DNA from: a virus
Lineage: Duplodnaviria > Caudoviricetes
Reading direction: 5' to 3' (one strand)
Virus record (IMG/VR): IMGVR_UViG_3300046170_000323
DNA: 64,000 nucleotides
Within the stretch, counting starts at the first letter, position 1. Each line of letters opens with the position of its first letter. The position numbers were made by a program, and so were the translations under genes. Of this stretch, positions 4,098 through 64,000 are shown one piece after another. Under the pieces are notes generated by a model. That model saw only the letters and a program-made list of their open reading frames with translations. It searched no databases and was not told the DNA's origin.

Positions 4098-5131
4098 TAG
4101 AAGTTCTCTAATTTAAGTCCAGTAAGTGTTACCACGACAGTTGACGTTGAACCTGATATATTAGTTACTCTTACAGGCATTGTAGTTTCACCGCTATCAA
4201 TGAAACCAAACACTGCAGGGGATAACACGATAGTGTTTGCACTGTTTGAAACGTATTCTAAAATTACACCTGTACCTTCTGCAGGGTCTATACCCTGTGC
4301 ACGACTTGCGTCTGCAGTACGAGATGCAACATCTTTATAAACTCTTACTCTTGCAGCTCTGTCTACTGTCACACTATAAAGTGCGAAAGATGCACCAAGG
4401 TCTGCAAATGAAATATCAGTATCGAAACCATCTGGCAAGGATGAAGTTGTGACAGCTTGACTAACACGTGTTGGTGTAAAGCCAGGACTTGAGTTACCAC
4501 TACCACCACCTGTAGATGCAAACGTGATTCTGTCATTAGTCGCATCTGTAGTAATTGTCATGTTACTACCTGCAACCAAAGTCAATGTATCAGTGATCGA
4601 ATCTGCAACAACAGAGGTCTGACCAGATACAGCGAAAGAACTAAATGTGTTTGATGAACCACCACCACCTACAGATTGCTCTACCCAAGTGTACGTTCCA
4701 TCTGCATTTGTTGCGAGAACATAATCCGCTACTTCTGTATTTGTATGATTATTTGCATAGACCATATCAGTCAAAGGATCTACATATGCAGAGATTGATG
4801 TGTTTGCGTCTGAAAGGAGTCTATTCCAATTGACGTGAGCGTAATACATTGCCCCTGTTTCGTGCACATGAGCAATGCACCCATGATACGTACTTGCGCT
4901 CAGATTATTGAGTTCAGCGAGAGTGTCAATCTTGAATGAGATGGGGTTCCAAGTGTTCAATACTTGAATGGCGTTGTTAGAAACCATATTAAGTAGAGTC
5001 TGTGAACCGACACCACCGACTGCACGATAAACTTCACTGAAGTTATCATTAAGTTTGTCCATGGCGACACGTATCGGATCACCAGTACCATCGTTTGGCG
5101 CTTGACCTATGTCAACAACTTGCTTTGCCAT
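4097..5131 (-). CDS. Tail fibre/baseplate connector protein with gp9/gp10-like N-terminus
   Basis: N-terminal DIGQAPNDGTGDPIRVAMDKLNDNFSEVY motif; Ser/Thr/Gly-rich beta repeats. Confidence 0.7.
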   Translation of the reverse strand: MAKQVVDIGQAPNDGTGDPIRVAMDKLNDNFSEVYRAVGGVGSQTLLNMVSNNAIQVLNTWNPISFKIDTLAELNNLSASTYHGCIAHVHETGAMYYAHVNWNRLLSDANTSISAYVDPLTDMVYANNHTNTEVADYVLATNADGTYTWVEQSVGGGGSSNTFSSFAVSGQTSVVADSITDTLTLVAGSNMTITTDATNDRITFASTGGGSGNSSPGFTPTRVSQAVTTSSLPDGFDTDISFADLGASFALYSVTVDRAARVRVYKDVASRTADASRAQGIDPAEGTGVILEYVSNSANTIVLSPAVFGFIDSGETTMPVRVTNISGSTSTVVVTLTGLKLENF

Positions 5132-55706: not shown

Positions 55707-55868
55707 ATGGAATGGATTATGGCCTTTGGATTCATCTTCTTTTTGATGATCCTCTGTTTTTCCTTACTGCGTTTCGCAATAGGTTTTTTATCATGGTCTT
55801 GGCGTAATTCATTCCTAATACTTGCCAGCATTATAATCTTAATACTCCTCTTAGCTCAGCTGGATTAG
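55707..55868 (+). CDS. 53-aa two-TM membrane peptide overlapping tRNA-Arg
   Basis: Manual translation MEWIMAFGFIFFLMILCFSLLRFAIGFLSWSWRNSFLILASIIILILLLAQLD*. Confidence 0.55.
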   Translation: MEWIMAFGFIFFLMILCFSLLRFAIGFLSWSWRNSFLILASIIILILLLAQLD

Positions 55869-58150: not shown

Positions 58151-58758
58151 CAGATATAAAAAGCATTGTAGACAGAAGTCAGATATGTACTAGGAACTGG
58201 GATCACTCAAAGACGATTCCAGAAGAACATATTGATATCTTTTTACACGCATTGCAGAACTGTCCAAGTAAACAGAACTTCGCCTTCTATAAAATTCATC
58301 TGATTACAGATAAAGAGATGCAGGCGCAGATCTTAGAAGAGACAAGGATCTTCACATTACCAAATGGTGTGACTGTTACTAATAGTCAAAACATGGCAAA
58401 TATTCTTATTGTGTTTGAGAAACCAAACTACAGTGATACCATGTTGAAGAGGAATGAAAAGTATACTTGGTTCAACACCCAACCAGAGTGGGAACTCGAC
58501 AGAGATTCGTGGATGAACATTGGTGTTGCGGCTGGATACTTGAATTACATTGCACATTCCCTTGGTTATGAAACAGGGTATTGTGCAGGTCTGCATCAAG
58601 AGAATGTTAAAAATATAATTGGTTGTGAAAACAATATTGAACTCATGATGGGAATAGGTTTTAGGGATATGGAACTGGATCAAAGAGATCATCACTTTGG
58701 TGAAGGCAGGTTCCCCCACTACAGAAAAGAACCTATCATCGTAGAACGACATGAGTGA
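58147..58758 (+). CDS. Nitroreductase-fold protein (paralog)
   Basis: RSQICTRNWD, NCPSKQN, IGVAAGYL...AHSLGYETGYC. Confidence 0.85.
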   Translation: MTDIKSIVDRSQICTRNWDHSKTIPEEHIDIFLHALQNCPSKQNFAFYKIHLITDKEMQAQILEETRIFTLPNGVTVTNSQNMANILIVFEKPNYSDTMLKRNEKYTWFNTQPEWELDRDSWMNIGVAAGYLNYIAHSLGYETGYCAGLHQENVKNIIGCENNIELMMGIGFRDMELDQRDHHFGEGRFPHYRKEPIIVERHE

Positions 58759-59477
58759 TTATGTTCACGTTAGGGAAGGACACGATGTCTATCCGTTCTT
58801 CAAAGAACTTTTCCCTGACTATCAACCCACAGAAAAGGTTTTAGACTTTGGCGGTAATAGGGGAAATTTACTTTATCACTCTAGTGGTGGAATTACAGAC
58901 CATAATTATACATCTATTGACGTAAGTACTACGGCGCTCGAATTGGGCAAACAGGACTTTCCAAACGCAACATTTATTCATAACAATAAATGGAACTGGA
59001 TGTACAATCCAAAAGGTGTTGAGTTACCTCACTACTGGCCTCTACAGAAGAAGTTTCCAGAGGTTGATTATAAACAGGACTACATCTTTGCATACAGTGT
59101 ATTCACTCATACTGATCTAACTGAGTTTGTTGAGACTTTAGAGTGGTTAAATTGGTTTGATTTCAAAAAACTGGCAGTGAGTGTCTTAGACATCAACAGG
59201 GATGAGATCCACAAATTCTTTTACGATAAAAGGGATAGAGGATTACGGGCATTGTGTTGACCTATCAGAGATGAAAGGTAAAAACATTGCATACCTCTAC
59301 AACAACGAGACAATCTTATACGACAAGATTAGTGCATACAAATTAGATGTTCAACACTTCTTGTCACTATATAACATAGACTTTTTGGTGGAGACGTTGG
59401 GTGAGTATGGATTCAATGTTACAATCGAAAAGCCAGGCAAAGGAATCATTCCTTTTGTCTGCATGGAAAAAAAATAA
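58751..59477 (+). CDS. Class I SAM-dependent methyltransferase (indel near 59240)
   Basis: KVLDFGGNRG, SIDVS, DYIFAYSVFTH. Confidence 0.85.
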
Positions 59478-59497
59478 AAAAAGTTTAATTTAACGCT

Positions 59498-59525
59498 TGC
59501 CTTTTGAGGCAACAAGTGTTATATT
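59498..59525 (+). promoter_or_regulatory. Early-type promoter driving the ncRNA/tRNA block
   Basis: TTGCCT-N16-TATATT, followed by GGTAAG like the other early leaders. Confidence 0.7.
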
Positions 59526-59530
59526 AACAA

Positions 59531-59772
59531 GGTAAGACACAGTGAGTGGTTGTCGACTCCCCCATGCTGAAGTATGGAAAACGACTTTAAGAGATCTGTT
59601 GTCTGTGGTAGCCTGTGCCACGTTAGAAAATAAGACGGGCCGATATTAAAGCAGTACCAAGAGATAGTGAGTTGCTGAACAGAAGTTGACTGTAAAAGAT
59701 TGCAGAAGGTCAACTACTCAACTTGAGGGTCACTCTAATTTACTGCACGTTTGATCGTGGTGTTGATCAAAC
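59531..59772 (+). ncRNA. Unassigned multi-stem structured RNA upstream of tRNA-Gly
   Basis: No ORF; nested stems GCAGTA/TACTGC, AGTGA/TCACT, AGTTGAC/GTCAACT, GTGGTA/TGCCAC, TTTGATC/GATCAAA. Confidence 0.55.
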
Positions 59773-59776
59773 ACAT

Positions 59777-59850
59777 GCGGATGTCGTATAGTGGCATTAC
59801 CTCAGATTTCCAATCTGATGATGAGGGTTCGATTCCTTCCGTCCGCTCCA
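59777..59850 (+). tRNA. tRNA-Gly(TCC)
   Basis: Cloverleaf GCGGATG..., anticodon loop TTTCCAA, CCA end. Confidence 0.95.
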
Positions 59851-59862
59851 AATTTTTAGTTT

Positions 59863-60031
59863 TCACTCGACGGAGTGGGATCGTGGTGACTGAATAATGG
59901 GTGGACGTGCCCATAAAGTACTTCTGAAGATGGTTAGCGCCATGTCTTAGCGGATGCAAGAAGGTTCGAAAGCGAGTTTGACAGGAGCGTCCTGTGCGAG
60001 TAGATGTCGGTAATCCTTAATCCGGCCCACA
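59863..60031 (+). ncRNA. Structured RNA downstream of tRNA-Gly (possibly manA-motif-like)
   Basis: Closing GTGGG/CCCAC; hairpins CACTC/GAGTG, ATGGG/CCCAT, ACAGGA/TCCTGT; no RBS-supported ORF. Confidence 0.55.
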
Positions 60032-60051
60032 CCTTATACTATGGAGTTGTA

Positions 60052-60483
60052 ATGAAAGCATATATTACAGGAACTCGTAGGGGCCTTGGATATGAACTAT
60101 CCAAGGTTTTTGAAACCTGCGACTCTCTTGAAGAGTGTAATGTATTCATCAACTGCAAACATGATGGCGTAGAACAAGTCCGCCAACTCTACCAAGCGGT
60201 AGATCTAGGAGTGAATAAGATCATCAATATTGGGTCGAATTCACCAGACTGTTTTCATCCCGAACCAAAACCCTATGCAGTTATGAAGGCGGCACTTGAC
60301 CATGCCAACGATCAGTTGTTTCAATTAGGTCATGACACTACTATTATTCGTTATGGGTATTTTGACTCCGAAAGAACTGCCCACATAGATGCGCCCAAAA
60401 TGGAAATAGACTACGCAGTTTATATGGTGAAGTGGGTTTTACACCAACCTTACAGAGTAAAGGAAGTAACTGTATGCGTGTAG
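60052..60483 (+). CDS. Short SDR-like oxidoreductase
   Basis: ITGTRRGLG, IINIGS, YAVMKAAL (YxxxK). Confidence 0.8.
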   Translation: MKAYITGTRRGLGYELSKVFETCDSLEECNVFINCKHDGVEQVRQLYQAVDLGVNKIINIGSNSPDCFHPEPKPYAVMKAALDHANDQLFQLGHDTTIIRYGYFDSERTAHIDAPKMEIDYAVYMVKWVLHQPYRVKEVTVCV

Positions 60484-63516: not shown

Positions 63517-63705
63517 ATGCAGAGAAATAGTAGACTACCAAGAAAACCTATGAACTCTGGTGATGAGTGGGATGTGTTAACTGACGCACGTGAGTTCTAC
63601 TGTTATACACAAAGATCTAAAGTTTGCAAAAAGATCAAGAAAGCGTATAACAAAAAAGAACGCAAATGGTTAAACAAAGAATTCTTAGTCGTGGACATGG
63701 ACTAA
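63517..63705 (+). CDS. Hypothetical protein
   Basis: SGDEWDVLT..R...KKIKKAYNKKER. Confidence 0.75.
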   Translation: MQRNSRLPRKPMNSGDEWDVLTDAREFYCYTQRSKVCKKIKKAYNKKERKWLNKEFLVVDMD

Positions 63706-63974
63706 GTAAAGATGTAATTGTTGAAGCAAAGCGAATACGAACTGGACTGGGGGGCAGTACCCCACAGCTCCACCACAAACACATTTACTGAGTGTGTTTT
63801 TGATGGGGGCTGAACTAGGATCGACAGGCGGGCTAGTTGAGTGGAGATTACCGTGGTGACCTACGTTATTCGGTCAAAAACTATAAGTGCAAATGATAAT
63901 TTCGCACCATCTGAGTTACGCCTAGCAGCGTAGCCGCAGGGGGTATGGGTTCCACCTAGCAACAGAAAGGGCCC
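63706..63974 (+). ncRNA. ssrA: Circularly permuted (two-piece) tmRNA
   Basis: Acceptor piece ...GGGGGCAGTACCCCACAGCTCCACCA (ends 63775); hairpin spacer; coding piece GGGGCTG (63806); tag frame 63889-63933 ANDNFAPSELRLAA*. Confidence 0.93.
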
Positions 63975-64000
63975 GTTTTACGTTTGGCATAAATATTTTG

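Follow-up and report, generated by a model that had tools for sequence, protein, structure and literature searches.

6S RNA forms a rod of about 180 nt whose large bubble in the middle mimics an open promoter. The put RNAs of the lambdoid phage HK022, which bring about processive antitermination, consist of two simple stem-loops and always act on downstream genes. In phage T4, the small stable non-coding RNAs rnaC and rnaD are found among the tRNA genes, adjacent to a tRNA (T4 record annotation); such small RNAs of T4-type tRNA clusters have been known for decades, and their function is still obscure. Marine T4-like phages also carry a further RNA element, the manA RNA motif (RF01745; PMC2864571).

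The locus described here occupies the same niche as rnaC and rnaD. It lies in a 64,000-nt stretch of viral DNA, referred to below as the window, that carries four tRNAs (at 55845, 56880, 56959 and 59777) and a permuted two-piece tmRNA. Since a nitroreductase-fold protein encoded upstream shares 50% identity with a protein of Pelagibacter phage Mosig (Kyanoviridae), no cultured phage matched the window at the DNA level and two IMG/VR contigs were 99.5% identical to it over the region, the source is, as judged from sequence, an uncultured marine T4-like myophage. For the intergenic gap between a small ORF and tRNA-Gly(UCC) (59478-59776), the original prediction was a single structured RNA of about 240 nt under its own early promoter. 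Comparison with related contigs instead resolves 59534-59776, within the tRNA island of the phage, into two separable cassettes of non-coding RNA: a structured small RNA of 111 nt (59534-59644), here called module A, and cassette B (59649-59776), made up of a rod and a hairpin. The tRNA-Gly that follows (59777-59850) has an encoded CCA and a 5′ end at the expected RNase P site, and directly after it comes a manA-like RNA (59863-60036; RF01745, 44.2 bits, E 6e-10, below the gathering score of 55.2), which precedes a short-chain dehydrogenase-like (SDR-like) gene (60052-60483). The promoter, both cassettes with all their helices, tRNA-Gly and the manA-like RNA are on the plus strand. Inside the region, three near-identical genomes differ at just two places, both in loops: a substitution at 59569 and an indel of 1 nt after 59693.

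Some features of the neighbourhood are recorded here in their own right. At 59228-59236 the window has one extra base (AAAAGGGATAG) relative to all seven near-identical contig copies and an RNA-library contig; without it the ORFs 58751-59260 and 59202-59477 merge into one methyltransferase-like gene of ∼241 aa, and the extra base represents either a frameshift in the window or a homopolymer error of its assembly. The permuted two-piece tmRNA gene (63644-63977; RF04321 115 bits, RF01849 103 bits) is also found close to module A in two relatives, L017 and L021. The same two contigs repeat the pairing of tRNA-Gly with a manA-like RNA, of which L042 retains only the first hairpin of the motif. More than 450 relatives of the downstream SDR-like protein were found, and the contigs fetched by the synteny of its gene showed flanking protein genes without any RNA or tRNA. 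No recurring partner protein was found next to module A; the proteins encoded nearby include a SleB-like hydrolase, virion-type proteins and a thermonuclease, none of them RNA-related.

Module A is built from four helices and two candidate pseudoknots, with long invariant single-stranded stretches between them. The outer helix P1 (59535-59542 with 59596-59604) starts 2-3 nt past the predicted transcription start and contains one bulged U at 59600; across the alignment it is 99.6% paired, and seven of its nine pairs have changed on both sides. P2 (59552-59555 with 59582-59585) is 96% paired, with changes on both sides in two of four pairs. It encloses the P3 hairpin (59562-59567 with 59572-59577; 84% paired, four of six pairs changed on both sides), whose loop is UGAA in the window and YRAA in all variants and which is followed by an invariant AAAA (59578-59581). 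The P4 hairpin (59605-59609 with 59617-59621) is paired in every sequence and has a nearly invariant 7-nt loop; two of its five pairs have changed on both sides, with U-A to A-U and G-C to C-G flips in 13 of 26 sequences. The candidate pseudoknot PK1, of 3 bp (59546-59548 with 59559-59561), would cross P2 and so form an H-type knot. Its covariation is weak: one pair changes from G-C to A-U in two sequences, and at one position A-U replaces U.C in the variants that have diverged most. PK2 would join the P4 loop (59611-59615) to 59636-59640; the two strands are complementary in all sequences and, since both are invariant, show no covariation.

Over the 26-sequence alignment, 93% of helix cells hold standard pairs, compared with 30-42% for slid partners. 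Changes on both sides occurred in 16 of the 32 pairs tested, and none of 500 shuffles reached the observed covariation. G.U pairs are retained on the plus strand only, which argues that module A is an RNA rather than a DNA signal. The helices originally proposed for the 5′ part (GTCG/CGAC, CCATGC/GTATGG and GTGGT/GCCAC) are thereby backed by covariation among 26 homologues, whereas the 8-9 bp outer helix P1 was missing from that list. The expectation that the region would fold better than shuffled sequence was not borne out, as z was -1.14 for the whole 242 nt, -0.64 for module A and -0.96 for the rod. Since neither the whole nor these parts are more stable than shuffles, the support for the structure is comparative, not energetic.

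The lead to relatives was an RNA-library contig that holds 59549-59634 nearly unchanged and then continues into a different tRNA-like start; an exact pattern from the 3′ part of tRNA-Gly matched only the two near-identical contigs in IMG/VR. A structure-aware pattern on the first hairpins gave five new IMG/VR contigs, a pattern on the P4 hairpin region 12 more, and a combined pattern 29 JGI metagenome contigs. The pattern scans found 47 loci with module A, comprising 26 distinct sequences. Scanning with the 5′ half alone added only one variant (27 in total), the rest being chance matches, which indicates that the 5′ and 3′ halves of module A always travel together. The 27 variants, from ∼30-45 IMG/VR and JGI contigs, are nearly fixed in length at 111-113 nt. 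A covariance model (R1) built from 11 sequences scored every copy at 97-135 bits; the window copy scored 116.7 bits (E 4e-23) and covers model positions 1-112 with pairs that fit the consensus. The alignment is free of gaps over ∼112 columns in all but two copies, mean nucleotide identity is 84% and ∼55 columns, mostly unpaired, are invariant. Searches of whole records found a single copy per genome in three phages, one of these genomes being complete (201 kb, with terminal repeats), and neither the window nor the near-identical genome G002 showed a second copy or paralogue.

Outside these uncultured phages the module was not recovered. The whole-record search of Mosig found none, and R1 had no match in Melnitz, HTVC008M, C48C1 or DLP_6; these five are cultured relatives, of which Mosig, Melnitz and HTVC008M are the nearest. 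For KVP40 and A511, R1 gave E values of 0.6-3.8 per genome, which is chance level, and one of these matches fell within nrdA. Comparison by blastn with 50,697 phage records returned no match to module A, the T4-type matches covering tRNA-Gly only, and a strict module A pattern was absent from 185,579 prokaryote genomes. The original prediction had called the RNA unassigned, which is what cmscan of 59300-60200 against Rfam upheld: nothing matched on 59531-59772 even at E≤10, and no 6S family appeared at gathering scores either. For the relatives L017-L021, L027 and L034, Rfam 15 gave no family on module A and only terminator-driven noise, and neither they nor the window copy matched its riboswitch or self-cleaving ribozyme classes. 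No tRNA-like fold was called in 59531-59772 by ARAGORN or RF00005, the sole call being the tRNA at 59777-59850. Of six strings specific to the module, the first 200 of the 438 supplementary files to Weinberg 2010 contained only one, an 11-mer occurring once, by chance, in a contig from soil. These comparisons establish module A as a well-supported structured-RNA family absent from Rfam 15, from the cultured phages searched and from the literature searched. It may already be an unnamed entry in the catalogue of 8,495 motifs from IMG/VR (PMC10690425).

A putative early (σ70-type) promoter lies just upstream of module A (59497-59525), with a -35 box TTGCCT (59497-59502), a 17-nt spacer and an extended -10 box (TGtTATATT, the hexamer TATATT at 59520-59525); an A-rich tract precedes it and the predicted start is near 59532. 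A promoter scan by itself performed at chance level, with three sites found and 3.7 expected. The same -35/-10 arrangement, however, stands at the same distance before the homologous RNA in many unrelated contigs, bearing out the early promoter of the original prediction. An automatic pattern found a TTGACA-like/TATATT-like pair ending 1-14 nt 5′ of module A in 17 of 31 distinct contexts, further contexts show such a pair by eye, the diverged relative L042 has kept it, and its position is conserved across lineages. This spacing would place P1 at the extreme 5′ end of the primary transcript. The claim that no protein ORF follows the promoter was likewise sustained. The sole ORF in the gap has 35 aa and a GTG start, and it is not conserved, being stopped after ∼15 codons in L017, L023 and most other relatives; the 1-nt indel at 59693 also falls in this gap.

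Four metatranscriptome assemblies were aligned to the locus, as assembled contigs, which show neither ends, strand nor level. A 489-nt contig of library X2 covers 59562-60026, bridging most of module A, cassette B, tRNA-Gly and the manA-like RNA. Library X1 has contigs on 59617-59846 and 59882-60026, and library X5 has one in which 59549-59634 is joined to a module-tRNA junction of the L017 type. The stretch 59310-59552 was without cover in the four runs. Adaptor letters were present at the X2 contig end at 59562 and in X1 at 60026, an end common to the X1 and X2 contigs. Contig depth was 48.8, compared with 3-7 on flanking genes, although contigs are not a measure of level. The RNA family was thus seen, as assembled contigs, in seawater RNA libraries of several studies, for which DNA carry-over is possible; salt-marsh metatranscriptomes, too, contain the locus. 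The view of a non-coding RNA behind an early-type promoter and contiguous with tRNA-Gly is consistent with these contigs, which bridge the RNA and the tRNA.

Cassette B has a much narrower distribution than module A, being found in three lineages only: the window, L042 and L068. Its rod (59649-59748) has a closing helix (59651-59656 with 59741-59746), in which an A-U pair has changed to G-C, and an apex helix (59684-59690 with 59709-59715), in which pairing is kept through a C-G to G-C swap. The trailing hairpin (59749-59772) has a stem of 8-9 bp and a GUGGUG-type loop, and ends 4 nt before the tRNA. Its fold gives z = -3.0 against shuffles, and four of its eight pairs have changed on both sides among the three sequences, all remaining paired; together with the closing helix it is 100% paired in the three sequences, with five pairs changed on both sides. 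The rod comparison is a poor alignment of three sequences with an ambiguous indel. The closing helix and AGTTGAC/GTCAACT, both proposed originally, are supported by compensatory changes in two relatives, TGTAA/TTGCA is not conserved, and AGTGA/TCACT and GTTG/CAAC never vary. In the hairpin proposed directly before the tRNA, the stem is largely rewritten in L068 and the loop is retained. L042, a diverged relative, shares promoter, module A, rod, hairpin and tRNA-Gly with the window, while L068 has rod and hairpin before a different tRNA, at a contig end that stops short of the upstream region. No counterpart of rod and hairpin was found in most module A contigs. L017 has no cassette B, and L021 and L037 have an unrelated insert of ∼160 nt at the same junction, from which it follows that the region is composite and that the junction just before the tRNA is a site of cassette exchange.

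The explanation that we favor for these observations, with confidence somewhat above even, is that an early precursor containing cassettes A and B is processed and that the released module A is a trans-acting RNA. Host RNA polymerase would start near 59532 early in infection and would produce a single precursor running from A through B and tRNA-Gly to the manA-like RNA. Sequence ahead of a tRNA is ordinarily cut off by RNase P at the tRNA 5′ end; here a cut at 59776/59777 would free the 3′ end of the upstream RNA, and a probable endonuclease cut between A and B would leave module A as a stable RNA of ∼115-125 nt with its 5′ end locked in P1. The loops and junctions that never vary would give it a specific surface, through which it may bind a host or phage macromolecule in trans, as a decoy or as a subunit of a ribonucleoprotein during takeover, rather than regulate the gene that follows. 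What points to a trans-acting binding RNA is that its unpaired blocks are invariant, that its length is fixed and that one copy, described below, stands alone.

The genomic contexts of module A bear on this proposal and on its main alternative, namely that module A stays on the early transcript as a cis leader, either providing put-like antitermination, by altering the transcribing RNA polymerase so as to let it pass the hairpin-rich tRNA/RNA island, or protecting the 5′ end of the transcript from decay. The constant promoter-proximal position keeps such a role alive, although we regard it as unlikely. In most lineages module A begins 1-14 nt after the -10 box, with P1 at the very 5′ end; it is single-copy, stands at the head of or within a tRNA island, and precedes genes of different kinds. 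tRNA-Asn(GUU) lies ∼13 nt 3′ of it in eight lineages, tRNA-Gly follows it directly in L017, and other contexts have non-coding cassettes and then tRNAs. In L020, L023, L047, L050, L056 and L062 unrelated acidic ORFs of 54-92 aa follow, with ordinary ribosome-binding sites 20-45 nt downstream. Other contexts are hard to reconcile with a leader. In L027, module A has its own promoter and its own plus-strand terminator and sits between two minus-strand late genes, one tail-tube-like and the other the gp23 capsid gene (73-78% identical to Melnitz and C48C1). Given this terminator and the neighbours on the opposite strand, module A cannot be a leader there, as there is nothing to regulate. In L029 and L044 it lies behind an ORF and has no promoter, and in L018-L020 and L025 other RNA motifs intervene between promoter and module A. 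In addition, a mere 5′ stabiliser would have no need of such extreme loop conservation. By its contexts module A thus behaves as an independent small-RNA gene, with the qualification that it is a clear stand-alone unit in only one of ∼31 contexts and is in most of them the 5′ leader of something.

Further recurrent elements were observed around module A. Motif B, a conserved element of 49 nt (L025 14316-14364; also L028, L033, L034, L024 and L041), starts with AUCUGGUGAAUAUACC and ends with a complementary CCAGAU; in several phages it adjoins module A on one side or the other, in variable order. Both GAGGAAAACCCG and GGUAAGAAC occur in motif C, a conserved hairpin-like element of 44 nt (L018 5904-5947; also L019, L020, L038, L041 and L034). 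It separates the promoter from module A, or in L034 follows the module, and has no Rfam match, the RNase P models included. The insert of ∼160 nt between module A and tRNA-Gly (L021 about 315-482, L037 and L057) has an 11-bp terminal helix and is missing from the otherwise near-identical L017, a second case of exchange at that junction. Directly 3′ of module A, L029 (about 5000-5050), L044, L048 and L055 have a second hairpin with a P4-like loop (UAGCCUGG); next come a complementary CCAGG tail and tRNA-Leu. The hairpin and tail are a paralogous unit with the topology of the proposed PK2 and a different sequence. Finally, L017, L030, L039 and L045 share a structured stretch located 5-90 nt past the first tRNA (tRNA-Asn or tRNA-Gly) that follows module A; it ends GACCGUA-(A/G)-G...AACGGUG and may be another cassette.

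The compact fold of module A is fixed in length, nests its helices, may include two pseudoknots and keeps ∼55 loop and junction positions invariant, traits reminiscent of small ribozymes and riboswitch aptamers. It could also be that of a catalytic or ligand-binding RNA of a new class, either a self-cleaving trimmer at the module boundary, which would part cassettes or alter the chemistry of the 5′ end, or a metabolite aptamer. This knotted, aptamer-like look, together with a location exactly at the cassette boundaries of tRNA islands, keeps the idea alive, but we consider it quite improbable. No Rfam ribozyme or riboswitch matched even at E≤10, and an expression platform is lacking, with neither a conserved downstream terminator nor sequestration of a ribosome site. 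Moreover, the downstream genes share no function, and processing beside tRNAs is already accounted for by RNase P.

The reading of the region as one multi-domain RNA of ∼240 nt, whose long bulged rod was originally suggested to mimic 6S RNA or to act as a protein decoy, now appears very improbable. Its parts are contiguous on one RNA-library contig and the terminal and apex helices of the rod are kept in three lineages; 24 of the 27 variants of module A, however, have no rod, module A being autonomous elsewhere, where it abuts a tRNA, precedes ORFs or stands alone, and the rod of L068 sits before a different tRNA (on the contig that ends before the upstream region). As a 6S mimic the rod fails on several counts, having no Rfam 6S match at E≤10, a length of 96 nt, half that of 6S RNA, a stability no greater than that of shuffles and no counterpart in most carriers. 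That the module has no RNA function at all, being a DNA-level element (a recombination or homing site, or an origin) or a recently spread neutral spacer, would fit the 84% identity between phages with unrelated flanks and the position at junctions where cassettes swap, but is the least credible reading, as substitutions concentrate in helices and are compensatory while slid controls collapse, G.U pairs are kept on one strand only, the orientation relative to the promoter is always the same, and module A is found in RNA libraries.

Two specific candidates were also rejected. Pairing with rRNA was examined by searching for complements in E. coli 16S, 23S and 5S rRNA; the longest, of 9 nt, was equalled by 306 of 500 shuffles. 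Short strings in motif C and module A that resemble conserved regions of RNase P had suggested a fragmented RNase P RNA; cmscan of the A-B-C region of L034 gave no RNase P match at E≤10, and the order of the cassettes differs between phages.

In these marine T4-like phages the intergenic RNA is modular, with cassettes swapped at tRNA boundaries, and this modularity alters how gaps are annotated and how covariance models are built for such regions. Against the long-standing obscurity of small RNAs from T4-type tRNA clusters, module A offers an unusually clean comparative case and lends itself directly to structure probing, partner pull-downs and cleavage assays. A bolder view, to which we give little credence, is that it founds a functionally new class of phage RNA, ribozyme- or aptamer-like or a subunit or decoy in host takeover. 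On this view marine T4-like phages, which are abundant, would make it within minutes of infecting a cell, and their tRNA islands would be arrays of exchangeable functional RNA cassettes, including module A, the rod, motifs B and C and manA-like RNAs.

Among described systems, 6S RNA offers an analogy in that it is likewise a phage- or host-encoded non-coding RNA able to titrate a protein; RF00013 and its relatives gave no family match in the region, however, and the conserved part has no long central-bubble rod, the rod of cassette B being optional. The manA motif is present as a sub-threshold copy 86 nt downstream, beyond tRNA-Gly, whereas 59531-59772 itself has no manA match and a different structure. 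Like module A, the put RNAs of HK022 are structured, lie immediately 3′ of early promoters and have no protein product. They differ from module A, which has multiple helices and is probably knotted, and one member of which (L027) is a terminated stand-alone gene; co-oriented genes and terminators, which always lie downstream of put-type elements, do not follow that copy, with its own terminator and convergent genes. With rnaC and rnaD of T4, module A shares, besides its place, a presumed maturation from a tRNA precursor transcript, but no detectable similarity in sequence or structure. With filters off, R1 found nothing on either of these RNAs, the best match in the 6-kb region (6.3 bits) lying elsewhere. 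Module A is of a kind already known, that of the small stable RNAs of T4-type tRNA clusters, and its family is new.
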